Source of the DNA: Euglena gracilis
Lineage: Eukaryota
NCBI GenBank assembly: GCA_039621445.1
Contig: CP154954.1
Location: 32,775,455-32,839,454, forward strand
DNA: 64,000 nt
Direction of reading: 5' to 3'
Below the pieces are notes generated by a model. That model was not told where the DNA came from. It did not search any database and saw only the letters and a list, made by a program, of their open reading frames with translations. Made by a program: the position numbers and the translations under genes. Positions 6,190 through 28,971 of the stretch are shown here, piece after piece (the stretch's first letter is position 1; every line of letters starts with the position of its first letter).

Positions 6190-7115
6190 TTGTGCACTGA
6201 AATCAGGGGGGCCAGGGCATTTTCTAAGGCACCTTGGGCACCAAGTCGTTGATAATGGGCTGTAAAATCCTCCAACCCCCTCCACCGGCCAGTTTCACAC
6301 ACTTCTTGGGCTGAAGCCCAATTTTTTTAGTAAACCAACCCCTGCTCCTCTGGTGGAGTGGGCCCCCCACACCAGGGGGGGTACCCCTTGCTGGGCCAAA
6401 AAGTCTTTTGTGAGAGAAGCAATGGTGTCTGCACTTATGGCCCTGAAGGGGGGTTTTAATGAAATTTGGCCCCCTGGTATGACGAATAAACGTGTAGCAG
6501 CTGCATAGCACATCATTAAAAGAAATGGGCTTATTTGGGGACACTGGGGTATGGACACCACCCTTTCCCACCTATGGAATTTCTGTCCTTTACGCTTAAT
6601 CTTGATTTAGGGTGCCCTACCAACACACTGGTGGTTCGTTTTACTTTTGCCAAGTCTGAGGATCGGTATAAACAGAGGATTTGTGAGCAAAAAATCAGTT
6701 ATGTACGCAATGTACAAATATCAGTGGGCATGGGCGCCTTTGCCAGCCTCAGTAGGATTGGGGGTGGATCCCAAAATGCACCATACTTCTCCAGGTTTTG
6801 GTTCCAAAGCCTCTTGTAGGTGGTTAACAGGGTGTGGAATCTCAGCCCACCAAACCCAGGAATCAAAAGCATAGCACAATATGCATTACGGGCTTTGGCC
6901 TGGGAAAATTGGAATAATTGAATTGAAGCGTCAGCCACTTGGTCTGTGGTGGCTTCGGGGGGGGCACCCCCATGTGTTCCAAAATGACCCACAGAAGTGC
7001 AAAAGCACTCTGATAACGTTTTAGGCTGGGGTTTCTCCCCAGGAAATCGTCAATGGCCTGAACCTGAATTTGTTTCCCCTCCAAAATTTGCCTGAGCAAA
7101 TCATGCAAAACAGGG
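6190..7115 (-). pseudogene. Tyrosine recombinase of DIRS copy A (frameshifted)
   Basis: Fragments YQSAFALLW..., ILCLYRSSDL, HSTRGAGVGLLKKLG, FTAHYQRLG contain the R...HxxR...Y catalytic motifs. Confidence 0.8.
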
Positions 7116-7993
7116 ACCCCATTTCCCAGGAAATCAAAGCCAAATTGAAGGAAATAAAAATTGTGCTGGACTCCTGGGTGGGCAGACCTTTCCCCCAAAA
7201 TGCAACCAGAGAGTTGCACTCAGACAGCAGCACCCATGCCTCGGGGGGGCTGACACATCCACACAGGAGAAACTGTGCAGGAATTTTGGAGAAAAGACTC
7301 TTTTTTGCACATAAATGTAAAGGAGGTCAGTGCAGCAATCAGCACTGTGAAAAGTTTTAGCAAACCTGGGGAAACAACCTGGGGAAAAGTTTCTTTGTCA
7401 GCGGACAACCAGGTAATTTGCCATTACCTGACAAAAAGAGGGGGCAGAAAGGACCCATTCAACCAAATGCTGAGACCATTTTTCAAAAAGTGCATGGAAA
7501 AACAAGTAAACCTTCAAGTAAATTGGGTACCTTCAAAGGAATGCCTGGCAGACCCCATAAGCAGATGGGAATTGGACAGGGGGGATTATTCTTTAGACCA
7601 CCAAATTTTTCACTGGCTAAGACAGCATTTCCAAAACTTCATTCAGCTGGAAAAGGATTTATTTGCATCCCCGGGCAACAAAAAACTGCCCAATTTTGTG
7701 GCCAGGAGGCCCAACTGGGCGGCCACAGCAGTAAATGCATTACAATGTCCACTGGACAACATGGGGGATCTTTATGCAAACCCCCCCTGGTCAATAATTC
7801 AACAAATCCTACCCAGGTTGAAAATGTTTCCCCAGACCAAAGTTTTGATGGTCACCCCCTACTAGGATTCAGCCACGTGGTGGCCCCAATTAATAAAAAT
7901 GAAAGTTCCAGGGACCGCCTGCCTGAAAATCACCTCCTACAGGGGCATGTTCACCAATTGCAGGGGGGAAAAAATGCCACCCCCCCAGGTGGC
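7116..7993 (+). pseudogene. RNase H + Dam-like N6-adenine MTase domains of DIRS copy A (inverted segment)
   Basis: LHSDSS, HINVKE, DNQV, WVPSKECLADPISR (RNase H); DLFASPGN...YANPPW...LMVTPY*..WW (DIRS MT domain). Confidence 0.85.
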
Positions 7994-8700
7994 GTTTTGA
8001 GTCCCAGGGGGCTGTGGACTTTGCCACCAAAAAATTTGCCAGGGCATCTGTAAAAGCTCTTAAAAAGGGCAGGGCCAATTTTTGACCCAAAATGGCAGCC
8101 AGCTGCCTTTTTGACATGCAATCTTTTTTCACAACTTTTCCCAGCTCCTTTTTTATGGTTTTGACTTTCTGGGGGGGCACCTGTAACTTTCCTTCCTGGA
8201 AGTTTAGTTGAAAACGCAGATGGGTTACCACTTGGGTTGGCTGGAGGGTAGACGTTCTCACATTGATTTTGAACTGAACTCAGTAAATCTTTGACGACTG
8301 TGTTCAGGTGATTTTGTAAAATGTTTTGGGTGGGGGCCACCAGCAAAATGTCGACCAGGAAAACAAACACCTGGATGCCCCTTTTTCTCCAAAGTTTTTC
8401 GAAAGTTTCCATGACTGACATGAAAACTTGGGGCATTACATTTAGCCCAAAGCAGCCTGTTTGAAATTCCCAGGTCTGCCCCCCTACCTGATGCCTTAAA
8501 AATGGCCTTAGGCCTGGACTTACTGGAATATGAAAATAGGCATCCTTTATGTCTGCTTTTGTTGCCCAGTGGCCTTTTTCCAAGAATGGAAAAATGTCTT
8601 GGATGTGATCCAACACATCAAATGCTGGGTTTCTGAATCCCAACAGCAGAATTTTTTCTGCCTGGTTCAGGTCCAAGTTGGCTCCGGGTTTTGGGTGGGT
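7994..8700 (-). pseudogene. Reverse transcriptase of DIRS copy A
   Basis: WATKADIKDAYFHIPV, EFQTGCFGLNVMPQVF, VFLVDILLVA (YLDD degraded), THLRFQLN. Confidence 0.85.
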
Positions 8701-11700
8701 GGACAATTTTGGGGGATTTACCCAGGGGGGTTGAATTCCATTTTTGATCAACTGACATGTTGCTGGGGGGGGGGGGCATGTTTTGACCACCATTTGAGAC
8801 TTTTTTGAAGTCTCTGGTACAGGGGGGTGTTCCCCCATTTTTCCTCCATGGAATGTATTTTGCCAACTGCATGATTTTCTGGTGGCTGGGTGGGGGGTGT
8901 TGGACATTTCACAGCCCCTAGAGCCCCTAGGGCTTGAGGGATGTGCACGCACTCTCTCCCTCTCTTCTCACACTCTCTCTGGAGCATCTTGTAGTTGGAA
9001 CACATACCATAGGGCTTACTGCCCCTTATTTGCCTACTGGCCTTCTTGATGTTGATGGTTTTGGTAGCCATACCATAGGGGGGCCACTGTGGGTCCCCCC
9101 TTGTTGATTGAGCAGGAATAAATGCTGGTCGGGAGTCTTCCCCTTCCTGTTCCTCCTGGTTGGCCCTTGGGGGGCCATCTTCCTCCTGGGGCTGGGCAGG
9201 AGGCTGCCCATTTAAATACAAAGCCCTTTCAGGGCTGGCGCTTAGCTTCGGGGCGCCTGGTGATGGTCCCTTCTTGTGATCTTATTGGAATTGATCTTCT
9301 TATTGATATTTCTGGCCCCAGTGGCCTTGATGATAACTTGAAAGGCCCCAATGGCCTGATTGGTTTCTGGGTCGCCATGCAGGGGTTCTTGGGTCCCCAC
9401 CCTTGACCCCTGAGGGGTGGTGTGAATGAGAAAGGGTGCGGATGGTGTGTTTGACCTTTTCTGCCCCTGCCATGTCCTGTGGGCCCTTGGAGCTGGTGGC
9501 TACCTTGGCCTTTGTTCCAGCTATTTCTGCAAATGCAGGTGCCGTCATGGCTGGTTGTGCCGTCATTGCCTTTGTTGCCTTCATGGCCTGTGCGGTTTTG
9601 GCTGCCATAGCCCCGCTTGAACTCAATGTGTTGTTTTGCAATGTGGAATGCATCTTGTGATCTGGACTGTGAGCCCCCATGGCCCTGGTTGCAATGGCTG
9701 TAGTGGCCTGCTGGCGGTTGCCTCAGCCCCTTGCGGGGTCTTCTGACCACTGCTGCCAGGCTCCGTGACCATCACTTTGGGGGGTCTGAGTGTTGAAAAT
9801 TTCTTTTGGGGTACTTTTTTTTGGGCAATGGGCAGCCACGTTTTGCAACGGTCGGTCCGCGTCGTCAGGTTGTCCAGCTGCTTCGGCTGCTCCAGTTGAA
9901 GGTCTCCAGAGCTGTGCTTCTTTGAAATTGCATCTTTCATTTAAATCCTTTCAAAAAAAATCAACAATTTTTGCTACTTGATTCTACACGAGCACGTCTT
10001 TCCGTATAGTAGAATTAAATTGTTTGACTTCTTCTTCTTTCAATTGATTTGGCAATCGAAGTTCCTTTGTTCTGGGTGTCGAATGGCAAATTAGGAATCA
10101 GCCAACTCCGGCGAAAAATCATAACCCAACACACCCAAACAGTCCAAACAACACCGCCGGCAAGCAAGGCATGGCCTCACAAGGGCAAAGTGCGGAGCCC
10201 GAGGTGTCGCCGGCGGTTTGTTGTGCTTGCTTTGGTGCACTGGGTTAGGAGGTCCCGCTTAGTGCCTTTTTTCGCCGGAGTTGGCTGATTCCTAATTTGC
10301 CCTTCGACACCCAGAAGAAAGGAACAGAGTCTAGAACGAAGACGAACCAAGAGAAGAAGTCAATATCAAACGAATATCTGGAAGGACACGAAGCCTACGG
10401 AACATCGATGTACAATTTACATTTTACAATTTGGCTTCAATGAACAACGCTGTGGAGAAGAAATTGGAATTATCCAATCGACGTGAACTACCCGGAGCAG
10501 CAGGCACCGCAGCAGCTGGAGAACCTGAAGGTGTGGACGAAACGTGGCGAACCGTGGCCGCCCCTTCCCCCCAGATACATTCATCAAAAAATTCCCAGCA
10601 AAAAAACCCACCCAGTGACGGCCACGGACAGTGGGTAACATTGGTCAGAAAGACCAGCAGGAGAAAGTTACCCCCAGCCCAATACGGGCAGAACAACCTG
10701 GGACAGAAGAACCCCAGAAGATGTCAAAGATATTTTGAAAGATGGAATCGAGGATCAAACCCATTCCACCAGAAGTTGGGCCCAGTCCCTCACAAGGGGC
10801 ATCAATGGAGGTCCCAATGTGGACATCCACCAAAGTCCCCTGCTGTTCAAAGCCCCAATACGGGCAGATGGAACGTGGGCCAAGGGGAACAACATCGGTC
10901 AGGCCTTGGAAGCCAATTCTGCTAGCACATGCCCACTGGACGCGGCAATAAAGGTGTGTTTAAAACCCCTAAATTGTCTCCCATTATCAAAGGGGGCCCA
11001 CAGAGGCCGCCCAAGACTTCCAATGCAGCTGGAGACTAACATCAAATCAAGCCAAAGGCAAAGAGAAGCCAGGCCATGGGGGCCAAGGCCATTACGGCCA
11101 ACAATTTCAAGCCCACTGGGGGCATCACTTCACAGGCCCTGGGGGCCAGAAGCTAATCAGCTGCAGCCCAATAGGGCATTATTACATTGCCCAGCCCCAG
11201 GAAGACCCCCAAAGGGACCCACAGAGGCCCTTTACTTGGACAAGGGTACAAGGTACCCTCCCACAGTGGACCTTGTGGAGGAGGACAAGGGACCCACAGT
11301 GGCCCCCCCCCCGTCAAATCTTTTTGTTTTGCCCATGGCAGGAGAAGATCAACCCAAGAGGGGGGTACCCACAGAGGCCCCTCTATGGTATGTCTTCCAA
11401 CAACAAGATCAGAGCGGAGGACCAGAGAGAGTGTGAGAGATGCATACACCCCCCCCCTGCAGATTTCCAACAACCTCCTATAAACCTAGGGGTTGCCATT
11501 ATCCCAAACACCCATCAGCAGGTCACATCATTCATCCCAAAATGTCCATGGGATGGAAAATGGTCATCAACCCAGCCCACAACCCCACAAAAACACTTGC
11601 TAGGAGAAAAAACTTCCATGGAGGAAAAGTGGGGAAACACCCCCCTGCACCAGAGACTTCAAAACAGCCTATAATGGTGGAACAAATTCCCCCCCCAAAA

Positions 11701-14700
11701 AAACCTGCCAACTAATCAAAGATGGCATCCAACCACCCTGGGACAGAAACCCAAAAATTGTCCACCCATCCAATATTCAGGGCAAACCTAAACCTGACCC
11801 AAGCAGAAAAAATCCTGTTGGATTACGAAAAATCTGGGGCCATAAAGAGGGTTCAAGATACAGGAACCCAACATCTAATTCTCTGATTTATAATATCAAA
11901 ACCAGAGGGGGGGGACAAAGTAGAGGTTCATAAGCGACTGCAGGGAATTGAATCAGCAGTTCCAAGTAAACCTTTCAAGCTGGATCACATCCAGCACATC
12001 CTTCCAATTCTGGAAAAAGGCCAGTGGGCAGACAAAAAAAATATAAAGGATGCCTATTTTCACATACCAGTGAGCCAGGCCAGGCCCTAAGGCTATTTCT
12101 GAGGCATCAGGGTGAAAAACATGGGAGTTCCAAGCAGGCTGCTTTGCCCTGAACATAATACCCCAAATCTTCATGGGGGTCATGAAAACTTTCGAAAAGT
12201 TGTGGAGAAAAAGGGGCATCCAGGTATTCATTTACCTGGACGACATTTTGGTAGTGGCCTCCACCAGAAACCCCTGCAAACTCACCTGGACACAGTGGTC
12301 AGACATTTATGAAAATTAGGGTTCAAAATCAATGTAAAAAAGTCGACCCTGGAACCCACACAAACTGTGCACCACCTGGGGTTTCAACTAACCTTCTAAG
12401 ACGGAAAGTTACAAGTGCTCCCCCAAAAGGTCAACACCACAAAAAGGAACTGGGCATAATTGTAATAAAGGACTTCAAGTCAAAAAGGCAGCTGGCTGTC
12501 ATTTTGGGACAAATCAGGTCCAACCTAATGGGCCTGCCATATCTCAGGGCTTTTACGGAGGCCCTGGCCAATTTTCTGGCAAAACACTACACAGCCCCAT
12601 GGGACTCCAAAAATCACATTTCAACAGAAATAAAAACCCAAATAAAGGAAATCAAAATTCTACTGGACACGTGGGAGGGAAGACCCTTCCCCCACCAGAG
12701 AGTTGCACTCAGACAGCAGCACCCATGCATGGGGGGATTAGACATCCGTACACGAAACATTGTGCGTAACTTTGGACGGAAAAGTCCACACTGCACAAAA
12801 ATGTCAGAGAACTAAGTGCAGCAATAAGCACAGCAAAAAGCCTAAGCAAGCTAGGAGAAACAGTTCTACTTTCAGTAGACAATCAGGTAATTTATTATTT
12901 CCGGACAAAAGGGGGTGGCAAAAAAAGATCCCTTCAACACAATGCTAAGAACATTTTTCAAATGGTGCATGGAGCACAAAAAAAATTGCAAGTCAAGTGG
13001 ATGCCTTGAAAGGAATGTTTTTCAGACGCCATAAGCAGATGGGAAATGTACAGGGGGGATTACTCACTGGACGCCCAACTTTTTCAATGGCTCAACCAGC
13101 AATTCAAAACAGTTTTATTTGCCTCCCCAGGCAACAAAAAACGGCCCAATTTTATGGCCAGTTGGCCCCACTGGGAGGCATCAGCAGTGGATGCACTACA
13201 ATGTCCCCTGGACAATCTGGGGGACCTTTTGCAAACCCCCCCTGGTCAATATTTCAGAAACTCCTCCGCAGATTGAAAACTTTTTCACAGACAAAAGTTT
13301 TGATGGTAACCCCCTCCTGGCATTCAGCCACCTGGTGGCACCAGTTAGTAAAAATGAAAGTGCCAGGGACCCCGTGCCTGAAAATCACCCCCTACAAGGG
13401 TATGTTCACCAACTGCAGGGGGGAAAAAATGCCACCCCCCAGGTGGCCCCTTCTTTGCACGATTCTGCTCAGGCAATTTTTGGAAAGGAAACAAATACAA
13501 AATAGGACCATTAACGATTTCCCAGTAAGAAACCCCAGTATAAGGCGTTATCAACACTCCTTTACGCTTCTATGGCTGATTCTGGAGACAATGGAGGTAC
13601 CCCCCCCTGCAGCCACCATTTCAATTTTTAAGGGCACAGGCCCGTAATGCATACAGTGCTATGCTTTGAAGCCCTGGCTTTGGTGGCCTGAAGTTCCATG
13701 GCATGCTAGCCCCTTACAAAAGGATTTGGAATCAAAATCTGCAGAAGTATGGTGCTTTTAGGGATCCCCTCCCAATCCTCCTGGGGCTGGCAGAGTCCCC
13801 CCTGCCCACTGATATTTGTACATTACGTACACAATTCATTATTTGCTCAGAATTCTCTGTTTATACAGAATTTCTGATTTGGCACAGGTCCAACGAACCA
13901 CCAGTATGTTGGTTGGGGCTCCCTACATCAAAATTTAGCGTAAACGCCAAAAGTTCCAGAAGTGGGAGAGAGTTGTTGCAATTTCTCAATGTCCCCATAT
14001 AATGCCCTTTCAGTTGATAATGTCCTACGTGGCAGCAACACGTTTCTTTGTGAAACCTGGGGCCCCCTTTAATTTCGTTAAAACCCCCTATAAAGCCATA
14101 ACTGCTGACAGAATTGCTTCCATCACAAAAACATTTTCAGCCCAATATAGGGTTACCACCCAGGTTTGGGGACCCCACTCCACCAGAGGGGCATGGGTTG
14201 GTTTGCTCAAAAAATTGGGCCTTTCTGCCCAAGAAGTTTGTGAAATTGGTCAGTGGAAGCGGGTGGAGGCTTTTACAGCCCATTATCAAAGACTTGGTGC
14301 CCAAGGTGCTTTGGAGAATGCCCTGGCCCCCGTTATTCAGTGCACAATCTGGCCTCACAATGGCAAAGTACGGAGCCCGAGGGGTCTCGTACTCCCTTAA
14401 GGCAAGCCGACCAGGGAAGAAGGGACACCGAGGGCGGAGCACAAAGACATTGTGAGCCCGACCCCCCCCCCAAACCCATGTCAGGAAATTTGTCTTCAAA
14501 CGCTCGGTCAGAAGATGGGGGCCAGAGGAGGAAGAGGGGGGGGGGGCCGCCCCGAAGGGGCAGAAGCAACGTCGTCACATCGGAGAAGCATTAGCAGCCA
14601 ACTCCGGCGAGGCGGCACTAAGCAGGACCTTCTAACCCAGCACACCAAAACATTCACAACAAACCGCCGGCGAGCAAGGCATGGCCTCACAATGTCTTTG

Positions 14701-17700
14701 TGCTACGCCCTCGGTGTCCCATCCTCCCTGGTCAGCTTGCCTCGAGGGAGTACGAGTTTGCGGGCTCGTTTTCCCCCTGGAGGGGGGGGGGGGGCGGGGG
14801 GGGGAGCGTTTTTTGGGTTGGGTTGGGTGGGCTCACCCCCCTCCTGTGCTTCGCCATCACGGTCCGTTCCTCCCAGGTCATCCTTCCTGAGAGTTCCAGA
14901 CCATTCGGGATGCGCGCACTCTGGGGGTGAGGTGTAGTGCACGCCCCCTGCTGTATTGAACAGGCACCTTGGGCTCCGCACTTCCCCCAAGTGAGTTCAT
15001 GCGTTGTTTGCCGGCTGTTTGAATGTGAATGTTTTTGGGTAGGTTAGGCCTTTCCCCTTTAGTTCCATATTTTGCCGGAGTGGCTGTTATTAATCGCCCC
15101 ATGGCAGAAGTGCTGGTGCAGTTTATCTCGGCGGCAGACCGTGGGGAGATACAATCACTGTACGATGGTATTTTCTTATCAAAGGGAGCAGCCGTTGCCC
15201 TTTTGGGCGAAAAGGCAGTGTCACAAGCTTCGTGGCGAAGGCTCTTGTGGTCCTCTTCCCACTTCACGGCGCCAGGTCTTACAGAGCTTGAAGGCCACCG
15301 AGGCCAGCTTGTCGGACTGCTCAAACGACGACCCCATCTCGACCTTGAACGCGTGGGCGGGCGGGAAGAGCCACGCTTTGTTGTAGAGTTTGGTCGATGC
15401 CGCCACCATGGCTTCTCCGCTCAGTTGTTCCACCGCCACCGCGGGCCGTGTCGTAGTCCATTAGGGGATGTTGAAGTTCCCCGCCGAAGCTGGAGAACCT
15501 GGAGGTGCTGAGATGACGTTGGACGCGACCGGCCGCGCGGCCAAACGAGGACGAGGCGGAAGAAGAGGAAGAGGAATCCCTGGAGAGGGAAAAGGCCCGC
15601 CAGAGCCTGCCGGCAGACCCAGAGAAGGTCTTGCTCCGTCAACAGGCGGGCTCCTTGAGTTTGGGATTCCGTTCCCTTTTAGAAGGGCTGCCCAAAATCG
15701 AGGGGCTGAAAGAGCGACCAGAGGTGAACAACCACAGGCAAGATGCAAGCTCCAAGGTGGACAAGCTGCTACGGAGCAGCCAACAAAGAATTGTGAATTT
15801 GCTGAGAATGTATGCATTGATCCATGAAGGGGCACAAGCTGACAAGTTGGTGATGAGCCAGCAGTTCTTCTACTTGTTGTTGGAACTGGAGAGGTCGTTG
15901 GTGGAAGAACGCAAGAAGGCAAGCCTCCCGCATTCAGTGGAACAGAAGGTGCAAAAGCTGTTCAGTGGACGTCTCAGAATATTCTTTTGTTTTTCTTGAA
16001 ATCCTCGGATTCCCAATTTTATTGATATCCCAAATGTCCCAAAGACGTAAACACTCAATGTGAAAACATAACACCAGAGCCAGCAGTCTGCGGAGGAAAA
16101 GTTAGAATTAGGAATCCAAAAGTCAGTTCGGCAGTTGGTAAGGTAAGCGGTCAGAAAATAATTCGTACACGCCCCCCATGCCGGAGGACGCGGCGCCACA
16201 GGCACAGGACGAAACGGCATCACACCACAAAACAAAATGGCTTTACTGTTTTTCAAGCACTGATGAATGGTGATCAACACGAATTGTCCACAAAAAGGTT
16301 CAGAACGACAAATGTCAACACAAATGAAGGTAAAAGACGTTACTTCCGATGTTCACCGTGGTCCCTTCGCTATGTGGCTGGCTTGCCATTCAAAGGTAAC
16401 ACAAACCTGGGCGAAACTCCTCGCATCAATGGCAGGTTTGTGACTGAAAGCCTTCAAAGGTTAGACAACTATCCACCCATGGCGAGGCAGGTTGGTGTCT
16501 CCTGACCCGAAAAACCATCCAAAAGGCCCCCTGGCGTTACCTGGGATCAAGCCTACCGGCTACGGCAGAACCTTTTGTCCTTAAGGGACTCCAGGAGAGC
16601 CAATCTTCTGTCGCCACCTCTTCTCCCCGGCCCGCTACAGCGGCACCCACAGGCGCGACTGCGCAAGCAGATACTGTGCCTACCGCTATAGCGGAACAGC
16701 CAGCAGCCCCTGCCGCTTCACTAGAAACGGTGGACGGCAGTGAAGAGAGCGATGGAGAGAGCAGAGAATACCGGATGGAAGGCCTGGAGGAAATATGTGC
16801 TGATGGACCTCACCATCTAGCTGTTCCACCAGCTCCAATGGGCTCCAGAACACCCCTTCCTCCCGAAGGAGATGTAAGCTCAGAGGCTGAATCCCCACCG
16901 TCTGAGGCCGAACGGCCAGCGGTACCTCTGGTACTACCCCTCTCCTTACCTGCAGTGCCAACGACACAAATACCGACAGAGCCTGTCGGATCACCGACAA
17001 TACCTGCAGGTGTTTTAGGTGGTGTGTTACGGGGTCTGACCGCGGCAATGTCCGCAGTATCAGCAGTGCTGACCCCTCGCGGCTCACCTGCCGCCTCACC
17101 ACCAGAAACCCAACGGGTTCCTGCTGCTGATAGCAGCTCAACAGAACAGCCGTACAGGCTGCGGTCACAACTTCAACGGAGTTGGATGTCCCAGCAGCTA
17201 AACCAGCGGTAAAATTACCACCAACGGCGGAAATGCAACCATCTCCTTCCAAACCGGCAGTTTCGGCACCGCCAACGGCGGAAAGACCATTGCCTCCGGC
17301 ACACCCTAGGGAAGAACGCAATTTGATAGATAACCAAACGATCCATAGCCAGGGTACAACGGGTGATACACCCATCGGTACACTTGGTGATTTTTCACAT
17401 TTGACAACTACACATAGCAGTTTTTCGCGATTCGCGTAGGTGAATCAAGCACGGTGTAAAGGCATAGCCTCCCTCTTCGGATTTGCGCATAGCGCTCCCC
17501 ATGCGCCAATGGCGCTCTCCACACCCCCCGCGCATATCGCGCTTCACGCACATGGTGCGAGTCGCGCGCCATTGCGCATCACCGATGATTGGGAATATGC
17601 CCAACCCACCCATGCCCAGCCTGGATCGAGTCCTATGGACATGTGTGTGAATGACTCACAATTCCGTCGTTCTGTTTTACAGCATGTTCTCTCCCTTCAG

Positions 17701-17749
17701 GATGTTGAGCAGGTCTCCAAAAACGTCAAGGACACTTGGAATTCTTTTC

Positions 17750-18050
17750 AGTTTGGTCAGTATCGAAGTTTGAACCATTGGTTTTCGAAAAACGCCGATA
17801 TCGCGTATTCCTTTGATTTGACCTTAGAAATCGATGCATTTTCATCCAACGTGCATTGGGCGATTACCGCGACATTGGTCGCAACATTCTAAGGCTTTTG
17901 ATAAGTTCTGGGGAGACACCATCCAATAGATGCACCCCCCCCTGAAACTTATCCCGCTTGTTGTAGATAAGGTTTTCCAGGATCAAGCGCGAGGCGCATT
18001 ACTTGTGCCTGTGAATCCCGAAGCGGAATGGTTTCAAAATTTGACTTGTG
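17750..18050 (+). pseudogene. Dam-like (DIRS/phage-type) N6-adenine methyltransferase domain inside the Gypsy element
   Basis: With one frameshift and one TAG (probably an ancestral TGG): QYRSLNHWF...LEIDAFSSNVH-RLPRHWSQHSKAFDKFWGDTIQ(W)MHPPLKLIPLVVDKVFQDQARGALLVPVNPEAEWF. This is collinear with the DIRS MT motifs DLFAS..N / A....W / NPPW..I..L / LV.P.W...WW. Confidence 0.7.
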
Positions 18051-18222
18051 TACAAAATTCTTGGAATGGTGGTAACACTACTCCACGTATATTCTCGAAT
18101 AGAGGAACATCGTTTGGCAGGTCAGACCAGTAAAAGGTGACTTAGCATCAGCCGCGAATTTTCTGGTGTTTTGGAGAATGCTGTTTACGTCTGTGATATA
18201 GACCCCGCTTTTCGCAGACCTT

Positions 18223-19590
18223 TTGGTGTTTCTGAAAACTGAGCTTAAAGAAGGCGCAAAACCAATGCATCGGAAATTTTTGCGTTGTTCAGGAGAAAGA
18301 GAGATAGCTCTCAATGAAATGATTGAAACGCTCATAGAGCAGAAGTGGATCATCCCTTCAAAGAGTGAATGGACCGCCCAGGCTTTTGACGTTCCTAAAC
18401 GCCCAGACCCATTAGGTCAGAAAAAGAGGAGGCTGGTACGGGATTATCGGTACTTAAATTCGCAAACTAAGGGTGACCCATTTGCGTTACCTCTCATTAA
18501 GAACCTCATCAAAAAACAAGCGGATAACCGCTTGTGGTCAATTTTCGACCTGGAGGATGGTTTACACCAAATGCGTCTGGATCCCGATTCACAAGCTTTT
18601 ACCGCTTTTGTAACATCCAAAGGTCTTTACCAGTGGACGGTTTTACCAACGGGTGTGAAGAATGGCCCAGCAATGTTTCAGCCCATGATCCAATGGGTCT
18701 TACGGGATTCGCCGTTTGCGCCTGTATACATCGATGATGTTTTGGTTGGTACCCCCCTCCTTCAGCGAATACGCACGAGAATACTCTCGATACTGACTAT
18801 AGTGACGTTCGCGAGGTATTAACCGCATTTCTCAAACAATAAATTTCCTTGTTAAAGGTGCCAAAATGCACTTATTTCGCGAAACGATAAATTTTTGCGG
18901 TCACATTCTTAATAATGGCCTAGTAAACTAGAGGCCATTAAGAAACGGACACCTGAGATCATCAAGACCATCTCCCATTTGAAGGTATTTTTGGGATTAG
19001 CCCAATACTACGCGATTTACATGAAAGATTTCGCGCCAATCGCGGTACCTCTGACGAGGCAGCTCAGAAAACGTGCACCCGAAAACACAAAAATTAAAAT
19101 GGGACGCAGATATGCGAGAAGCTCTGGAGAGCATTAACAAGCTAACGCTTGAAAATGTCGTACTCGACATCGCGGATCCCTACAAGCCTTATGTGCTACA
19201 AGTCGATAGCAGCGATTATGCTGGGGGCGGTGTTTTAAGCCAGCATAATGCTGCTAACGAATTACGCCCTGTAGCATTTTTTCTGTCGGAAGCTACAAGG
19301 TGAAGATGGCCAAACGCAAGTCAAATGGAGTATCCGTGAAAAGGAAACGTACGCAATCGTACTGATTTTGCAAAATTCTGTAGTTGGGTCGCCAGTTCCT
19401 TGGTGAAAAAAAAGGGTTGACGGACCATGAGAGTCTTCAACACTGGTACACCGAGGACCTGAACAAAGCTATGTCTTCTGTAGGCCGAAGACGCCGATGG
19501 CATGAATTTTTGAGCCAGTTCAACCTAGTGGTTGTACATACTCCCGGTCATACGCAAAAAGTAGCAGACCCGCTCAGCCGAGCACCCTGG
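18223..19590 (+). pseudogene. Gypsy RT and RNase H
   Basis: RLVRDYRYLN, DLEDGLHQM, TAFVT..GLYQW.VLP.GVKNGP, VYIDDVLV; VLQVDSSDY..GGVLSQ, REKETYAI, TDHESL, VADPLSR. Confidence 0.92.
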
Positions 19591-19917
19591 CATTACACAG
19601 GCAACCCGGACGAAGGTGATGCCACTTTTCATGGAACCCAAAAGGCTGATGAAGTTGCACGTCGATATGACGCAGCCGACGATATGTTGGATTCTTTTCC
19701 CGTTTCATCGATTTTTCGTTCTTTGCCAGTCTCTCCTATACGGGGGAGAAGGCGGCGAGGCCGTACACCTGGTCCCTGTCGCATTATTGGATCTGTATCT
19801 CCTCCCCACCTCTTCTTCCGCGAATGGGATTGCTCCCAAGATCCTGTATATAGCACGATAGTGCATAGACTGCGCAATGGCGAAGTTGGACATAATTATT
19901 GACTCTTCCCTTTACGG

Positions 19918-22603
19918 TTGGTTTACCACGATGATGCGGGATACAAATATTATGTACCCCGTGACTTGGTTGATGAAGTACTTTTGTGTTATCACAACCA
20001 AGGTCACCCTGTGGCCCCCAAACTTCTTTTTCTTGGTGGGTCGTACGCATTGTACACCCCTGAAAGACCAAGAACTGCAATCGTGCTGCTTGCAAATTTC
20101 GGAACGGTGCCAAATTTGTCAAGCGGTCAAACTGCACAGAGGTACCCCCCGTGGTACGCTTGACTTTTTCCCCGTACCCCCTGACATTTTTACGTCCCTC
20201 TGCACGGATTTTCTTGAATTAGAACCTTGCAAAGGATCAGACGGCAAAATTTAAGGTTATGTTGTCGTCTGCGGGCTGAGTCGGTACATTGTAGCCGTTC
20301 CATGCCAAAAGACAGGGTTGACGGCGCAAATTTTAGCGCAGATATTTTTGGAGAAGTGTATTTGGCTAATGGGCTTACCGTGTAGGTTCGTGCAGATCCT
20401 AATTTCACCTGCTGTCTAACTTTGCAGGTGGCAAGGGTTATGTACTGTTTGCGTGCAGTATGATTACTGTTTTTATTTTATATTGCCAGTGGTCTGGGAA
20501 GGTTGGAAGGCAGAAAAGATTAAGTTTTTGACAAGTTCAGATATCACTGAAAAAGTCCAGATTGGAGATTGCAATGCCAAGGAAAAGGCCATGTGGGCCA
20601 GGGCCCCCGCCCTCACAAACAGTACAACTCCCGTACAAACAGACATGTCAAGATTGCCAACAAGGGGGCCAATGGCCTGAGAAGAGCAATTGGAATCCGG
20701 CCAGCAAACCTCAGAAGTCAAGTTTGAAAGGAGAGAAAATGTCAAAGGATGTGTCTGACATGGCCATGCCTGTGGCATCACAATCTCCAAGGTCGGACGA
20801 ATCATCTGGGATTACCACTGTGGACAGGGAAGTTCAGACAGACGGAGTCAAGCCCAAGCCCAGAACACTCCAGAGACGGAGGAGGCGCAGCAGATTGCAG
20901 CCGCCAGCGCCAGCAGGAGTAAGATTTGACAGATTTGTGGGAAGATTTTACATGGCAGGCTGCTGCTGCTGTGGCTGTGGATGGCCGCGCAGTTCAATTA
21001 CTGGTGGTCGAATGTGGTCATCGCCGCGTACGGCTGTGGAAATGCCGCTGGCTGCTGCACCTCTGGTTGTGGGTTATCCGAGCGTTTACGCAGAAACCCT
21101 CCGCCGTGTGTGATTTGGCGTCGAGGTGGTGGTAATTGGACTGGGCTGTGGACAATCGCGTCGGTTCGCTTTGCATTTCCGCTTTGTAATTTTTTCCCCT
21201 CCGAAACAGAATTCTCTCCCGTTTTGTTTGTTTGTTGGCCATCTCCCTACCCTTTGGGGATTACTGTGGCAACCTGGTCGAAAACGGGGGGAGGACCAGT
21301 TTGCGACAGTTTTTCCAAAGGCTCTTGGGGGATGCCCTGGGCGGTTGGGGTACCTTTTCTGTCATTGAGGCATCAATGATGGCAAGGGCACCCCGACGGC
21401 ACCCGGGGGTTCCCAGCGAGCACTGGCCTACGGTGTTGTGTGACCTTGTCGTTGACAAGATCGTGAAGCAGGGGGGTGTAGGTTCGCGCAGATCCTAATT
21501 TCACCTGCTGCCTTACTTTGCAGGTGGAAAGGGTCATGTACTGTTTGCGTGGAGTATGATCACTGTTTTTATTTTATATTGCCAGTGGTCTGGGAAGGTT
21601 GGAAGGCAGAAAAGATCAAGTTTTTGACAAGTTCAGATATCACTGAAAAAGTCCAGATTGGAGATTGCAATGCCAAGGAAAAGGCCATGTGGGCCAGGGC
21701 CCCCGCCCTCTACCGAATGAGATTGTCAGTGATCAAGATCATTTGATATTCTCTCGATTCTTCACAACCCTCTGCGGTTTACTGGGAATCGAACAGCTTT
21801 TTTCCATTATATATCGCCCGAAGGGCAATTGCCGCGCGAGGCAGCAGTAAAAGCTGTTGTAAATATGCTCCGCCTTTCACTAGCTGACTCGCGCCAGGCC
21901 TGGGTCCAAGTTTTGCTATGGTCCCTGTTTTACATGAACACCGTACTTGGTTTGGTCTTCCCGCAATCCCCATATAAAACTGTTTTTGGGCGAGACCCAC
22001 CGGCGATTGGTGACCATCACAGAGACAAGCTGGAAGTAGCGTAACTTGTGAGACATGGTTCTCTGAAGTGAAGTCTCTCAGAGCTACTGCTCAGAAGCGC
22101 ATCACTGATATCCATTCTCATAAGAGAAATAAATTTTTGCAAGAATTCAAATAACCCGGCTATAGTGCTGGTAATCGCGTGTGGGCTCAAATTGTCGAAT
22201 CCTCATGGAAGCTTTCAAGCTAGACCCCGTCTGGTTCGGACCCCGTTAAAATCTGGAACGCTTTGGTAACAGTGGCAGCTATAAGGTGGCACTGCCCAAC
22301 GGGATCGAGGATGTTCACATGGATGATTTCAAGCCATACCTTACCCCGCCTAATGGCAAAGCACCACCGTGCCTTTATTTCAAGCCCCGTTCCAAGTCAC
22401 CCGAAACGGATTATTTTGTGGTAGACAACATCCTCGATCACAAAATTGATCGGGGAGTCCATTACTGGAAGGTCAGGTGGAAAGGCTATGGGCCAGAGGA
22501 GGCCACCTGGGAGCCAGCCTCCAGATTTTTCGGTTATGTCCAACAGGACTGGAAGCTGTGGAATAACAGAAACAACATAGACATTTCTGTGAATCATTTT
22601 TGA
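19918..22603 (+). pseudogene. Gypsy integrase + chromodomain (interrupted by the mini-LTR element)
   Basis: H-x3-H (HNQGH) and CQIC zinc finger, TDF, GLP|NEIVSDQD, RPKGNCRAE, FGP motif, chromodomain FVVDNILDHK...YWKVRWKGYGPEEATWEP. Confidence 0.9.
20381..21710 (+). mobile_element. Non-autonomous mini-LTR (TRIM-like) element, 1330 bp
   Basis: Near-identical ~234-bp direct repeats at 20381-20617 and 21477-21710; 5-bp TSD TACCG (20376-20380, 21711-21715); purine tract before the 3' LTR; excision restores integrase GLPNEIVSD. Confidence 0.92.
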
Positions 22604-22649
22604 TATCGAACTACAGGCCTCTTCCTCCCCTCTCTGTTTTTTTGCCAAC

Positions 22650-25600
22650 CCCAGTTCATTTCTCTCTTCTTTTTCTACAACTCATAAAGCAACCTTTTCT
22701 CGCCAGATGCAAGACCCACCCGCCCCTCATACAGTACGCTCTCCCTCCCTACCCCCCACACGCTTGTGCGGCGGCCCCAGCAGCCCAAGGGGCGCCTGCG
22801 TATGCGGTATACCACCCACCTCCTGCCGCCTATGCGTCCGAGGCACAAATTCCACCCCCTACTCAAATGGTTCAGGCACGAATGCCATTCCCCTCTCAAG
22901 CTCAAATGCCGCCCCCCTCTCAGGCGCAAACGTTACCTTCCTCTCATTCGGCCCCTGCGCCAATGGGAGCTGCATAAGCGGCACACCCTCAACAGACACA
23001 TCAAGTACCAATGGAACAACCACCACCTCAGCAGGTACACCAGGTTCCAATGGAACAGCAACAGTATGTGAGGCAGGGACAGGAAAAAGGAGCAATAATA
23101 AAGGCAGGTGAACGAGAAAATGCATCTTTTTCAATGCCCCTCCTTGAACTCCCTGCAATCCAACCCTGCTTCCCCAGCCCCCTCCAGGTACCCCGGTCCC
23201 CCCGCCCTCCCCCCTCCCAGGCCCCGGCACTGCATTTGGTCTCGCAGACACAGGTCGAAAAAGGGGGGGGATTATCCTTACCCAGCTCAGCAACCCTGAC
23301 TTATAAAATCCTCCCTTGGGCCAACCAACCAAGACGACGGATAACCCCTCCCCCCCACCTGGTGAAGAAAACAAAAGAAAGGGTTCAGGGACGAATTCTT
23401 TTCTTTTTGCTGCAAAGACCCAAAACTGAGTTCTTTGCAATTGTTTTTTGGCGGCCCGCGAATATTCGCCTCCAACGGGGCAGGCGCATTACGCCATGCC
23501 TGCTCCCTCACCTCCCATACTGTATACAACAAAGTATGTCATTACGCAGCAACCCCAACCCCAACGTACAGGGTGTGCCACCACACCCTGTACACGCCGT
23601 ACGGGCGATGGCCCCCCTCCTGCTGCTCATCCCGCCTGGGAACCCGTGGCCCAAACCTGCGGAGCGTGCTCGACTTCAGAAAATTGTCGACGATACGCGA
23701 GACAGACTCCGCAACCCCACTTAAATCGATCCGCCTAGAGGCGAACCCCTCCCTATTAATAGCCCACCGCTATTGGTGGACATGCAGGATCAACCTGCAG
23801 CATACCCAGCAGTCAAAATGGCTTAGGCCCCACAGGAATTGCTTGGCAGAGGAAGCGATATGAATCCTACCTTTTTGGGCCCCTGTTTTGCATCCCATCT
23901 CAGCTCCCGTGCTGGGAAACAAGCTAGGAAAGAGATTGCCCGATGGGAAGCCTGATTGGGCAAAGGAAAAGGCAGAGGTGCACCCAAGCGAGCACCTACT
24001 GTAGGCCAAAAAGGCAAAGGCAGAGGCCAAAAAAGCCAATACCGGAACCTCTATGAAGACGACATGGAAGCTCTATTCGGGCACATCCGAAGCATTCATG
24101 ACCTCACATTCGAGGCCATGCGGAAATTCCAAAACGAACTTAACCTTCCCCTTCTGGTCGCCTCCCCCGTCATGGCTGTGACCAGAGAGCTCTATACGCA
24201 GCGCAATCGCGAGATCCACCATGATGGAACTTTATATGCCTTTGAGGGCAACGTCATCACCGGTCCCACACTGCACAATCTGCCGGGTTTCTGGCTCGTT
24301 TGGTTCTGGGCGAAATACCCCACCCATAATTTTGCCAGGTACCTGAACTCCTGTGGTTGCCCTTACCTGGACTGTCGTCGAGAAGACCGATACAATACAG
24401 GTAAAGACCTACTGCGACAGTTATTCGACTGCATTCGCAGTATAGGCCCAAAAGGCCTGGATTGAGAGATCTACCCACTGCCTGAAAATATCGCCAGACC
24501 TTTTACAGCAATCTGCAAGCCTTCTACCACCGGCAATATGCCTATCACTTCGAAGTGGTCGATATTCACCTTCGATTCCCCCAGACGTATATCGTACGAT
24601 GTTCCCACTGCTACGAAAAGTTTGCAGTGGACTTCTGGGGATTCGGAGTACGCAGTACTCAACCACAGGCCGAAGGCCAGGATGAGGAAGGCCAACAGGC
24701 CAATGTCCCGCAGGCGGCACCAAAGCGCATCACGCTCTTGCACCTTTGTAAAAATCCAAAGGATGTGCATAAAAGCTCGAATGGGCGTTTGCCGATATGG
24801 CAAACACAAAAAGCCTAAGGCTAAACCCTCAGCCGAAGGCACCTGCAAGCCCGCTGAAAGGCAGCGGGATGATGAGCCACCACCACCTGGTGGAAATGGC
24901 TCTGGATCAGGCCATAGGCCCACGTTACCCATGGCCAGCTATGTGGCTGCAACATCTACGGGGGCTAAGAGCAAACCCACAATCAGATCGATACGATCAA
25001 ATGTCCCACACGAGGCCAATGAGCCATTTTGGACTGAGGACGTATTGTCCAGAGTAGACCCCCTCCAGACTCGCCAGGCTAGGATCCATATGATCCGAAA
25101 CAGCAATGATCCCCGGCTGAACAAGTGGATCAAACCTCTGTTTCACAAGGATCGACCAGGTGTTTTCACGACCAGCCACACTTGGCGCTTTTGTATTGCC
25201 AAATCCCTACTGGGTCTTCGCCCAAAATTTTTGAGGAAATTTCGTCCTGGATTTCCAGGAAAATGATCCACTATTGTGGTTATGTACAGCATGCCATAGG
25301 CTTCGAAACGACATGCCCGCAGTGCGTTATCTGCACACGTAACCCGGACAGCATAAGCTTCCACTATGACGCATATGTGCGCAATTGCGCAGCATTGGTT
25401 TGTGTGAACGCCTATTGGCATTGTCAAATATGGACAATTTCCGCTGGACGGAAAATGCTTACGATAAGGACATTCCTGTCCGTTGCCTCAACTGCCTACA
25501 GGCAGATTTCTGGTTACCTGCAGATGGCAGTATGACTAGAGTCATACTACAAAATGAAGACCACCTGGTCAAATTCAAACAGAACTATAAGTCCCAGATC

Positions 25601-26132
25601 TATTTTTATCAGTTCCAGAAAATCAAAGCTGTACACGGCTACCGCACAGGCGGAATCGCCAAAGATTTTCATCTCGACAGCGCAGCTGTCCGACTCGCAG
25701 TTGAGTCTGCAGGACTGGCCAAAGTGCCAATATACTGCTCAGGACTCCGATTGGGATAGGGTGATATACCCACTTTTTCAGGCACAAACCCTGCCAAACC
25801 AATCAGGTTATACATTCCTGTTGCCTGAATTCATCCCTGAGGCCTACAAACTGTCATTTGCTGATTGGGCAAGAGAAAGTTTAAGGCCATTCACAATACG
25901 AGCGCGAGGCGCAGGTTGGCATTGCAAGGCAGATCCTGCCGTTTACCCGGGAATACCCCCACAAGTTCAATGCAACCACCCCCGCCTCAATTTTTGGATC
26001 TGGCCGGCAACGTTGCCACTTTTCTTCTGGGATAACCTCCAGAATTTTCTTCTCCGAGAAGCAAACAGGTACCAGTTTTGGGGACGTGTACCAGGCAGCT
26101 GTAAGGCCATGGTATTGTGTATGTGGGTATAA
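22650..26132 (+). pseudogene. Decayed extra ORF region downstream of Gypsy pol (Pro/Gln-rich then Cys-rich, unknown function)
   Basis: A chain of overlapping + strand protein-like fragments with CxxC motifs (RCSHC, CPQC, RCLNC), broken by frameshifts. Confidence 0.5.
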
Positions 26133-28971
26133 GCCTACGACCAGATATATCTCTCAGCCCCATACACAATACTATGCTAGGTGGTATTCCTAAAGATGGC
26201 CAACGGCTTGAATTAGGAATACCTAGCCCTTTAGAGCAAAACCTCATTCTGGTTCTCTCTCCACAGGTGGTATTCTATTTTATTATTCTTGTCTTCACTT
26301 GATTTCAAGTTTTAATTTGTTTTCTGAAGTCCAGAAAGGACAGCCCAGTCACTTGGCATTCTTTTTTGTTGCCCATAGGGCTCTTCCGCCTGCCTTGTGC
26401 TCTGCTGTCTTAAGTGGGGAAAAGGGCTTTCAACTTTTCTATTTTATTATTTTTTCTCGTTACTCCAACTTTTACCTTTGCGCACCAAAGGGCGAAAACC
26501 AGGAAAGGTTAGACGTACACTCCCAGCCCCCAGACGAAAAATGACCCACAGTGGCCCTTTTTGGAGGGAGGGGAAGAAACCCCTCCATCAATTATTTCTC
26601 AATTATTCCCATCAAGGGGGGGGGCCCACAGAGGCCCCCCTGTGGTATGTCAACCAACCACGTCAACATGGAGAAGACCAGATATGCCAAACAGGGGCAT
26701 TAAGCCCTATGGTAGGTCTTAGAGGGAGAGAGTGCATGCACATCGCCCCAGAAAAAATATTCCCAAGCCCGCAGAAAAGCCCGCAGAAAAAAGCCTGCAG
26801 AAAAAAGGCCCCAATCCCGCAGGGGACGTAGGGGTGCAATGTCCCACACCCCCAGCCCAGCCCCCAATTGTCCACCCACCCAAAACCCAGAGCAAATTTG
26901 AGTCAACCCCAAGCAGAAAAAATACTGCAGGATTACGAAAAATCTGGATTCGTAAAGAGGGTGAAGGATTCAACCACCCAGCACCTGATCCCCTGGTTTC
27001 TAATTTTAAAACCAGAGGGGGGGCAGACAAAATGCAGATTAATAAGCGTTTGCAGGGAGTAAAATCAAAGGTTACAAGTGAAAACTTTCAAGCTGGATCA
27101 CATCCAACGCATTTCTCCAGTGTTTGAAAAGGCCACTGGGCAGCAAAAATAGACCTAGAAGATGCTTACTTCCACACAGTGAGCCATTTCTAAGACATCA
27201 GGTAGGGAGGGAGACCTGGGATTTCCAGGCAGGCTGTTTTGGCCTGAATGTAATGCCCCAAATTTTCATGTCGGTAATGAAAACAGTCGAAAAGCCGTAG
27301 AGGAAAAGGGGAATCCAGATATTTATTTACCTGGACAACATTTTACTGGTGGCCCCAACACAAAATGTCTTGCAAAATCACCTGAACACAGTGGTCAGGT
27401 ATTTAATCAAATCAGGATTCAAAATCAATGTAAAAAACTTCACCCTGCAACCCACCCAAATCGTAAAAAATCATCCTGGATTTCAACTAAACTTCCAGGA
27501 GGAAAAATTGAAGGTGCCCCCCAGAAAATAAAAACAGTAAAAAGGAGCTGAGAAAAATGGTGAAAAAGTTTTCATGTCAAAAAGGCAAGTGGCTGCCATT
27601 TTGGGCCAAATAAGATGCAATCTAATGGCCCAGCCCTTTTTTAGGGCCTTTACGGATGCCCTGGCAATTTTTTTGGTTGAAAATTCCACAGCCCCCTGGG
27701 ACTCAAAACACCCCATTTCCCAAAGAATAAAGGACCAATTAAGAGAAATAAACTTTCTGCTGGACACCTGGGTGGGCAGACCCTTCCCCCAAAGTGCAAC
27801 CAGGGAGTTGCACTGGTACAGAAGCACACATGCCTGGGGAGGGCTGGACATACGCACAGGAGAAATTGTGTGCAAGAATTTTGGAGAAAGACTCCACTTT
27901 GCAGATAAATATAAAGGAGCTGAGTGCAGCAATAAGCACAGTACAAAGCCTCAGCGAGCCAGGAGAAACTGTGTCCCTGTCAGTGGACAATCAAGTAATT
28001 TTCTATAACTTAACAAAGGGGGGGGGGCAGCAAAGACCCCTTCAATTGTACGCTAAGACCATTTTTCAAATGGTGAACGGTACACAACATAAACCTGCAA
28101 GTAAAGTGGGTCCCGACAAAGTAATGCCTAGAGGACCCCATAAGCAGGTGGGAAATGGACAGGGGGATTATTCCCTGCACCCCCACCTTTTTCAATGGCT
28201 GAGGCAGCAGTTTCCAAAATTGCGTAAGCCTAAAAAAAGACCTTTTTGCCTCACCAGGAAACAAAAAACTGCCACAATTTGTGACCACGTGGACCCACTT
28301 GGAAGCCACAGCAGTGGATGCTTTACAACGTCCCCTGGACAACATGGGGAATCTTTATGCAAACCTCCCCTGGTCTGTAATTCAAAATTTTCTCCCCAGA
28401 TTAAAAATGTTTCCACAGGCCAAAGTTTCGATGGTCACCCTCTACCGGGATTAAGCCACAGGGTGGCCCCAGTTAATAAAAATGAAAGTACCAGGGACCC
28501 CCTGCCTGAGAATCACCCTTACAAGGGTATGTTGACCAATTTCAGGGGGAAAAAAGTGCCACCCCTCAGGTGGCCCCTCCTTTGCATGATTTGCTCAGGC
28601 AAATTCTAGAGGCGAAACAAATACAAAAAACAACCATTAACGATTTCCCAGGAAGAAGCCCCAGTATAAAGAGTTATCAAAGCACCTTTACGCTTTTATG
28701 GGTGATTTTGGAGGAAATGGGGGTACCCCCCCCTGAAGCCACCACTGACCAAGTGGTAGACGCTTTAATTCAACTGTTTCAATTGTCAAAGGCCCAAGCA
28801 CGCAATGCATGCAGTACTATGCTTTTGATCCCTGGCTTTGGTGGCATGGGGTTCCATGCCATGTTGGCACCTTATAAAAGGCTTTGGAACCAAAATTTGG
28901 AGAAATATGGCACATTCTGGGATCCCCACCCAATCCTCCCGGGGCTGGCACAGTCCCCCTGCCCTCTAATA

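Follow-up and report, generated by a model that had tools for sequence, protein, structure and literature searches.

The question raised by a 64,000-nucleotide stretch of Euglena gracilis DNA (GenBank assembly GCA_039621445.1, contig CP154954.1, positions 32,775,455 to 32,839,454 of the forward strand; hereafter the window, meaning this whole stretch, in whose coordinates the element is described) is whether a Ty3/Gypsy-type long terminal repeat (LTR) retrotransposon carries a Dam-like adenine methyltransferase (MT) domain as a genuine part of its pol gene. An earlier note, made from the sequence alone, had read a motif string at 17750..18050, lying on the plus strand immediately 5' of a Gypsy reverse transcriptase (RT), as such a domain. 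We conclude that the segment 17458-22603, perhaps from 15801 onwards, is very probably a dead copy of a Ty3/Gypsy chromovirus of the 'DAM-LTR' type, with a Dam-like MT in Pol. The kind of element is not new, because a preprint of 22 May 2026 (bioRxiv 10.64898/2026.05.21.726589) describes, in the portions drawn on here, Dam domains in LTR retrotransposons outside the DIRS group, chromodomain-bearing ones included, under that name. The present analysis makes a modest addition, namely the order putative protease (PR), MT, RT, RNase H, integrase and chromodomain, and a catalytic motif that appears to be derived and repeatedly degenerate in otherwise intact elements.

A decayed Gypsy-type pol was delineated on the plus strand at approximately 17458-22603 by means of Pfam searches and tblastn with database polyproteins (P0001 and onwards in our numbering). 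Pfam searches of the window's reading frames recover RVT_1 (18202-18822, E 6.5e-16), RT_RNaseH_2 (19055-19303, E 1.1e-12) and Chromo (22250-22603, E 1.3e-10), the chromodomain lying C-terminal to the integrase; the reading frames of the integrase part at 19417-20375 gave no Pfam match. In tblastn the succession of RT, RNase H, integrase and chromodomain is collinear with P0001 and P0003 across many frame changes, and these two proteins themselves carry RVT_1, RNase H, Integrase_H2C2 and rve in Pfam. The parts of the copy are as follows.

15801-17457, plus strand: possible upstream part of the same repeat family, at the place expected for PR and a linker rich in S, T and P (rise in contig depth; no protein-level match)
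17458-17703, plus strand, frame 1: linker preceding the MT (tblastn with P0002 residues 187-322 begins at 17458)
17704-17856, plus strand, frame 1: N-terminal piece of the MT domain (tblastn; profile E 4.1e-4; 68% identity to P0204 over 41 residues)
17861-18036, plus strand, frame 2 after a frameshift: middle piece of the MT domain (tblastn; profile E 7.5e-17)
18037-18141, minus strand: C-terminal piece of the MT domain, inverted (tblastn; profile E 6.6e-6)
18144-18231, plus strand, frame 3: linker between MT and RT (tblastn)
18232-19095, plus strand, frame 1: RT, with stops near its end (64-67% identity to P0001, P0002 and P0204)
18845-19408, plus strand, frame 2: RT-RNase H connection and RNase H (Pfam RT_RNaseH_2; tblastn)
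19417-20375, plus strand, frames 1 then 2: end of RNase H, and N-terminal and core integrase (75-89% identity to P0001)
20376-21710, plus strand: foreign insertion of 1,335 base pairs (bp), outside the element proper (blastn; contig joints)
21710-22249, plus strand, frames 2, 1 and 3: C-terminal part of the integrase (tblastn with P0001 and P0003)
22250-22603, plus strand: chromodomain and end of pol (Pfam Chromo; 84% identity to the C-terminus of P0001)

The motif string is indeed present where the earlier note had placed it, and its reading of the catalytic motif as HPPL was correct; the domain itself is larger than the span that it had given (148 residues, 17704-18141), falls into three pieces, the last of them inverted, and is not one open frame. 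It is joined directly to the Gypsy RT. The peptide EIDAFSSN lies in frame 1 with its D at 17833-17835, and the DAFSS within it (17833-17847) corresponds to a conserved D-A-F site resembling motif I. Between about 17850 and 17861 the frame shifts, and frame 2 then runs over 17861-18036 from RLPRHW via AFDKFW to WF, with a TAG stop (17927-17929) at the position where the relatives have W, followed by MHPPL at 17930-17944 and within it the motif IV H-P-P-L at 17933-17944. The C-terminal third, 35 residues encoded on the minus strand of a 105-bp inversion, matches residues 387-421 of P0002 with 60% identity and P0204 with 54% in tblastn. DNA contigs from two sets (X1 and X2) link 18047 to 18143 on opposite strands, and other copies are therefore not inverted. 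By tblastn the window copy has nothing that corresponds to some 44 residues (422-465) of the MT-RT linker in P0002.

The resemblance of this segment to the MT of the relatives is far above chance level. In tblastn the intact relative P0002 covers 17458-18064 with E 2.9e-39 (62.7% identity over 75 residues in the part with the motif), and P0204 matches the MT of the window with E 7.2e-34. A profile of the MT, built from 28 database relatives only and holding no row from the window, matches 17930-18130 with E 7.5e-17 and the inverted piece with E 6.6e-06 among 2,226 six-frame segments.

Whether the MT belongs to the element is answered chiefly by the relatives. A search with the RT of the window returned 55 of these, 33 with at least 270 residues upstream of the RT, and the MT is present in 24 of the 33, comprising every one with at least 43% RT identity (24 of 24); the nine that have no MT are more distant Gypsy lineages within P0045-P0055. 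P0204, a member of the 90% cluster of the closest relative P0001 (86% RT identity), has its MT at residues 2-147 and its RT at 240-446. Across all proteins collected, the MT stands upstream of the RT in 40 of the 41 having both domains, the exception being P0012, where the two overlap. Of 18 relatives scanned, 15 match PF05869 (Dam) at E <= 0.01 and 9 exceed the gathering score, and in each Dam-positive case the match starts 221-298 residues ahead of the RVT_1 match. Within single reading frames of intact relatives the succession is PF05869 Dam, then RVT_1, RNase H, integrase and Chromo, and nine full-length frames of 1,626-1,881 residues share a layout of PR motifs, linker, MT, RT, RNase H, integrase and chromodomain. 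The LTR lineage postulated in the earlier note, joining an MT fold with a chromodomain, is thus seen intact, both occurring in single frames of 1,600-1,880 residues with the MT in frame with pol and upstream of the RT. The motifs D-T-G and I-I-G-Y/F near the N-terminus of the relatives (residues approximately 80-190) we take to be those of a retropepsin-type protease, and an S/T/P-rich linker follows them. The relatives match rve and Integrase_H2C2 and no phage-integrase family, which indicates a DDE integrase and not a tyrosine recombinase.

Conservation within these polyproteins bears on whether the domain is merely carried along. Among six intact close relatives (15 pairs) mean identity is 49.0% for the MT, 49.1% for PR, 31.1% for the linker and 15.7% for the stretch preceding the MT. 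The MT is as conserved as the protease and far above the linkers, which argues for retention and against mere drift. The order in Pol is putative protease, variable linker, Dam-like MT (about 148 residues), RT, RNase H, integrase and chromodomain; throughout this RT lineage the MT is conserved, in frame and integral to pol. Members of the close clade only (P0003, P0005, P0006 and P0009-P0011) have a C-x2-C ... D-C-G-C motif after the linker and before the MT, at about residues 336-365 in P0003 numbering, which may be a zinc knuckle; a counterpart is unrecognisable in the matching stretch of the window.

DNA contigs under the same organism label agree with this picture. In X1 the summed word depth of contigs, which is not a copy number, stands at 72,000-94,000 in the bins of the MT, 75,000-170,000 in those of the RT and 7,000-10,000 in the foreign insertion, and it climbs from about 5,400 on the left flank (bins 15267-15800) to 30,000-60,000 from 15801 on. 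The MT has a depth of the same order as the RT, so that the MT segment shares the repetition of the remaining element and is no stray piece of DIRS. Other copies thus hold the segment, a point on which the earlier note had made its reading depend. An open frame at 16448-17212, inside the region of raised depth upstream of the recognisable pol, is rich in S, T, P and A and resembles the linker of the relatives. Of two RNA runs under the same species label, one yielded 157 reads and the other (X24) 153; the majority lie only partly on the stretch, and 105 of the 153 in X24 are less than 90% alike; these reads reflect at most low-level transcription of family members and are no evidence on the window copy. 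In RNA run X21 a depth of about 16-fold on each strand was seen at 15801-16067, with most reads running into unlike sequence. This 270-bp stretch is common to some expressed sequence elsewhere in the organism label, and is no evidence of expression of the Gypsy copy.

As to the family of the domain, PF05869 (Dam) matches 21 of 25 Gypsy MT domains scanned at E <= 0.01 (best 4.7e-12), phrog_111 ('DNA methyltransferase') matches 20 of them, and none matches Pfam PCIF1_WW at E <= 0.01. The solved chains, searched with the MT profile, contained no sequence relative, the only match being at chance level (E 1.3). An AlphaFold2 model was obtained from a 25-row alignment for the MT domain of P0025, which has a canonical motif IV ([D/N/S]PP[Y/F/W]) and not the HPPL of the window (pLDDT 94.5, pTM 0.89). 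Its best solved match is PCIF1 (Foldseek E 3.2e-3, probability 1.00; Z 10.4, rmsd 2.8 over 127 residues), followed by KsgA/Erm/DIMT1, METTL5, T4 Dam (Z 7.6), M.TaqI (7.3) and E. coli Dam (7.1). The domain is predicted from this model to be a class-I S-adenosylmethionine (SAM)-dependent methyltransferase fold of the adenine-N6 kind.

The relationship to known families can be stated more closely. Phage-type Dam proteins (PF05869, phrog_111) are the best sequence families, and canonical members share NPP[F/Y] with them; in contrast, only profile positions 21-117, approximately, of 169 are matched, and the Gypsy domain sits in a retroelement polyprotein. PCIF1/CAPAM (PDB 6irx, 6irw) provides the nearest solved fold to the P0025 model, and the PCIF1 active site is itself of the NPPF type; identity across the PCIF1 rows is, however, 12-16%, and PCIF1 acts on RNA as an enzyme of the cell and has WW and helical domains. 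DIRS1-group tyrosine-recombinase elements also carry an MT domain, reportedly described by Goodwin and Poulter. The Gypsy and DIRS versions share a pattern of D-x-F-A-S, N, D-A and [N]PP. They differ in setting: the DIRS MT follows RNase H and is accompanied by a tyrosine recombinase, whereas the Gypsy MT lies between PR and RT and is accompanied by an integrase and a chromodomain. A tblastn search of the DIRS MT against the Gypsy copy of the window gave nothing at E < 0.01; the Gypsy MT profile finds two DIRS MT copies in the window (E 1.2e-4 and 8.1e-3), and hhalign of the two families aligns 70 collinear columns with a probability of 70.5% and E 3.9e-5. Judged by these profile comparisons the MTs of Gypsy and DIRS are homologous and collinear, yet too diverged from each other for BLAST, much as the earlier note had described.

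The window holds three decayed DIRS-type copies with an MT on the plus strand, at about 7254-8050, 12949-13647 and 27752-28750. The DIRS copy at 11887-14400 shows the order RT, RNase H, MT and a tyrosine-recombinase-like reading frame. One DIRS MT frame of the window matches Pfam PCIF1_WW weakly (E 0.077) and none matches Pfam Dam, and a DIRS terminal sequence at about 14500-14758 recurs at 33221-33479, 5786-5985 and 10122-10287.

If the domain is an integral part of Pol, is it also an enzyme? In DNA adenine methyltransferases such as M.TaqI and the Dam enzymes, the Asn of motif IV positions the amino group of the target adenine and the aromatic residue stacks on the flipped adenine, and mutagenesis of M.TaqI, T4 Dam and EcoDam indicates that base flipping and catalysis depend heavily on both. 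A canonical [D/N/S]PP[Y/F/W] motif is present in 82 of 172 readable MT domains, the share of non-canonical motifs being inflated because many rows are fragments, perhaps of decayed copies. The H-P-P-L of the window is non-canonical, and its nearest relatives have HPPL, HPPP, HPPA and HPPS. In the crown clade that holds these nearest relatives none of ten rows is canonical: all ten have HPP or NPP-aliphatic motifs, the aromatic residue of the fourth position being absent throughout and Asn replaced by His in five. These non-canonical rows include intact reading frames of 1,640-1,805 residues, and six intact close-clade polyproteins show HPPA, NPSL, HPPS, NPPI, HPPA and NPPL. Three more distant intact polyproteins have NPPF, NPPY and NPPF, and the canonical motif is met in more distant members such as P0020, P0025-27, P0029 and P0038. 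Invariant columns include both prolines, the D-A-F site and many others.

The direction of change can be approached with an RT tree, a quick one of 47 rows with SH-aLRT values only, a midpoint root and several long branches. The MT-bearing rows group together in it (SH-aLRT 93), the early MT-bearing branches and several subclades have NPPF or NPPY, and other non-canonical forms (HCPH, HPPE, HPRP, HAPK/QAPR and CPPF/CPPP) occur in separate subclades. The presence of NPPF/Y in the early branches and several subclades, together with the losses in separate subclades, is most simply explained by an ancestral NPP-aromatic motif lost more than once. The tree thus suggests that NPP[F/Y] is ancestral and HPP derived, on an issue that the earlier note had raised, and the pattern of motifs hints at several independent losses.

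Which other readings of the locus deserve weight? The segment might be a one-off DIRS fragment lying before a 5'-truncated Gypsy copy, that is, a chimera produced by nested insertion; DIRS copies with an MT do lie nearby at the positions given above, and the Gypsy copy of the window has neither PR nor LTR on its 5' side. Against this, identity of the segment to the MT in intact Gypsy polyproteins is 57-68%, BLAST shows no likeness of it to DIRS MTs, every one of the 24 relatives that reach 43% RT identity and extend far enough upstream has the MT, and contigs of the same label cover the MT segment as they cover the RT. With relatives holding the MT and contig depth like that of the RT, we rejected this explanation as very improbable. 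That the decayed DNA resembles an MT motif by chance alone might be argued from the lack of any direct Pfam or PHROG methyltransferase match to the pieces in the window, and is contradicted by the E of 2.9e-39 to an intact relative and the profile E of 7.5e-17, which leave it practically negligible. The integral MT of a DAM-LTR chromovirus is thus the preferred account of the architecture, and two further alternatives concern what the domain does.

It might be a PCIF1-like RNA module, which methylates or binds the element's own transcript at a cap-adjacent or internal adenosine, or mimics PCIF1 at RNA polymerase II. PCIF1, a cap-specific adenosine methyltransferase, is the best structural match (Z 10.4 versus 7.6 for T4 Dam), a DIRS MT frame of the window weakly matches PCIF1_WW, and Iyer, Zhang and Aravind (PMC4738411) proposed, in the part of their article drawn on here, a PCIF1-type role for the MT of DIRS1. 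By sequence, however, the Gypsy domains fall with PF05869 and phrog_111 and in no case with PCIF1_WW at the threshold used; the tree in the preprint portions drawn on here (10.64898/2026.05.21.726589) places the Dam domains of eukaryotic transposable elements with prokaryotic Dam; and PCIF1 may be simply the nearest solved fold, because no solved chain is a sequence relative. We regard an RNA-directed role of this kind as unlikely. The other alternative holds that adenine methyltransferase activity persists in the HPP and NPP-aliphatic variants, with a changed chemistry or a changed substrate, such that the clade of the window, too, marks its complementary DNA (cDNA). The retention of the MT at PR-like conservation in intact reading frames and the invariance of the two prolines, the D-A-F site and many columns speak for it; the absence of the aromatic residue in ten of ten crown-clade rows with Asn replaced by His in five, the great weight of both lost residues for base flipping and catalysis, and the failure of even canonical transposable-element domains to yield N6-methyladenine (6mA) in E. 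coli in the same preprint (10.64898/2026.05.21.726589, as far as drawn on here) speak against it, and it appears improbable to much the same degree.

Several observations weigh against our own interpretation of a DAM-LTR with an adenine methyltransferase in Pol. The MT pieces of the window match neither Pfam Dam nor a PHROG methyltransferase at E values up to 10, the sole PHROGs match to them being phrog_4424, of unknown function, at E 0.026; their assignment to Dam runs through the intact relatives, because the pieces themselves match no methyltransferase family. On a profile match to a methyltransferase, which the earlier note had called for, the relatives thus answer positively and the window pieces do not. 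No Pfam protease family matches any relative, for which reason the PR call rests on motifs known from retropepsins. In the window copy, no flanking pair of direct repeats (LTRs) was found by blastn of 14500-24500 against the window and of 22500-27000 against 9000-18000, a PR profile and relaxed tblastn with the N-termini of the relatives recovered no significant protease, and no gag was found; its status as an LTR element therefore rests on the homology of the RT, RNase H, integrase and chromodomain. The limits already attached to the contig depths, the shares of motifs and the RT tree belong on this side as well. On the side of function, expression of DIRS and DAM-LTR domains in dam-deficient E. 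coli brought no rise in 6mA, according to the consulted portions of the preprint (10.64898/2026.05.21.726589), and Iyer et al. 2016 (PMC4738411), in the part drawn on here, placed the DIRS1 MT in the PCIF1 clade as a PCIF1-derived domain and considered it likely inactive.

With at least eight frame changes, stops, a 105-bp inversion and the 1,335-bp insertion, the window copy is dead and rearranged and has no biological activity of its own; it also looks 5'-truncated. Any function must accordingly be sought in its relatives. In members with NPPF or NPPY, the MT would be translated as a part of Pol beside the RT and, being made as part of the same protein, would therefore enter the particle with it. 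There it could methylate adenines on the nascent cDNA or the RNA:DNA hybrid, and a new insertion would then arrive already marked with 6mA. Such methylation may be the true activity of the NPPF/NPPY members, although we lean slightly towards the contrary. In the clade of the window (HPP[L/P/A/S], NPP[I/L/V]) motif IV lacks the Asn, the aromatic residue or both, and on the strength of these motifs catalysis has probably been lost or much weakened. The fold might there have been kept to do something other than catalysis, for instance to bind nucleic acid or SAM, or to form a structural element of the RT precursor.

The portions of the preprint drawn on here (10.64898/2026.05.21.726589) allow some comparison with the elements described in it. 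They name five lineages (Chlorophyta chromovirus-like, Chloro-Ochrophyta, Ichthyosporea, Pyropia and Euglena), report absence from Metazoa and Streptophyta, and give chromodomain-bearing LTR elements as 30.9% of the transposable elements with Dam domains. They also describe these Dam domains as having no N-terminal catalytic and recognition parts, and likewise propose methylation of nascent cDNA or of an RNA:DNA hybrid. The elements described there resemble those of the window's lineage in being of Ty3/Gypsy type, in carrying a prokaryote-like Dam in pol together with a chromodomain, and in the relationship of their Dam to that of DIRS. The Asn-Pro-Pro triplet and the aromatic residue following it are well conserved according to the preprint, whereas the clade of the window has HPP or NPP-aliphatic motifs in intact frames; the order PR-DAM-RT does not appear in the portions of its text drawn on here. 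It is conceivable, if rather doubtful as a whole, that the window's clade represents a further DAM-chromovirus lineage outside the five, in a CpG-depleted host, with an MT that has lost catalysis and that selection maintains in active elements as a pseudo-enzyme, a module of the RT precursor binding nucleic acid or SAM.

Literature searches for such elements turned up no account of adenine methyltransferases in Gypsy elements besides this preprint. Its subject has a parallel of sorts. Retrotransposons have reportedly captured cytosine methyltransferases as well, in work ascribed to de Mendoza et al. of 2018, with pol carrying a DNA-modifying enzyme; these are C5-cytosine DNMTs and not of the Dam-kind adenine methyltransferase fold.

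The MT profile matches 8,886 representative proteins at E <= 0.001, a count that falls to 1,544 at E <= 1e-10 and to 58 at E <= 1e-30; these large numbers mean that the DAM-LTR domain class is large. The cluster of the canonical relative P0038 holds MMETSP transcripts of 1,521 residues, a sign that the family occurs, at least in part, in marine microbial eukaryotes. No full-length relatives with LTRs and gag were found in metagenome contigs (with P0005 as query) or in viral contigs; a family alignment as query gave 12 loci, only one of which (L001, 1.7 kb) is close. The ESM Atlas returned weak or generic rows, at 0.75-0.76 for the MT part and with P0001 falling in generic chromovirus clusters. 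In two independent records, L001 (292-1707) and P0012, a more distant NPPF-type MT stands right after the Y-I-D-D of the RT in one open frame, the RT being 62-68% identical to that of the window; either a nested insertion has been propagated here, or there is a second architecture in which the MT follows a truncated RT. In P0199 (1,114 residues) the order is of Copia type, with Dam (561-606) between the integrase (rve, 109-183) and the RT (RVT_2, 974-1074).

The insertion at 20376-21710, within the integrase, has terminal direct repeats of 235 bp (20380-20614 and 21476-21710) that are 96.6% identical by blastn. Seven contigs of X1 and five of X2 skip the 1,335 bases and join 20375 to 21711; at the joint 5 letters are compatible with either side, which would suit a 5-bp target duplication. 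The insertion looks like a small terminal-repeat (TRIM-like) retroelement, and no coding domain was recognised in its internal part. The surrounding DNA of the window is eukaryote-like and repeat-dense, with a CpG observed/expected ratio of 0.55 and TpG and CpA in excess; 24 further long reading frames yielded no host gene. The only Rfam match in the window is one tRNA gene at 56553-56623 on the minus strand (RF00005, 62.8 bits), and a G+C-rich island at 50001-52000 (65% versus about 49% elsewhere) contains proline-rich low-complexity frames on the minus strand with no Pfam match.

The DAM-LTR class has here been recovered independently from raw sequence. Retrotransposons that possess DNA-modifying or chromatin-reading domains of their own show how such elements handle the epigenetic control of the host, and a subclade with intact polyproteins and no canonical motif bears on the question, raised by the negative E. 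coli assay of the preprint and by the view of Iyer et al. on the DIRS MT, of whether the MT is an enzyme at all in these elements. If the repeated loss of the motif is true, it would argue that the main value of the domain to LTR elements is not adenine methylation.

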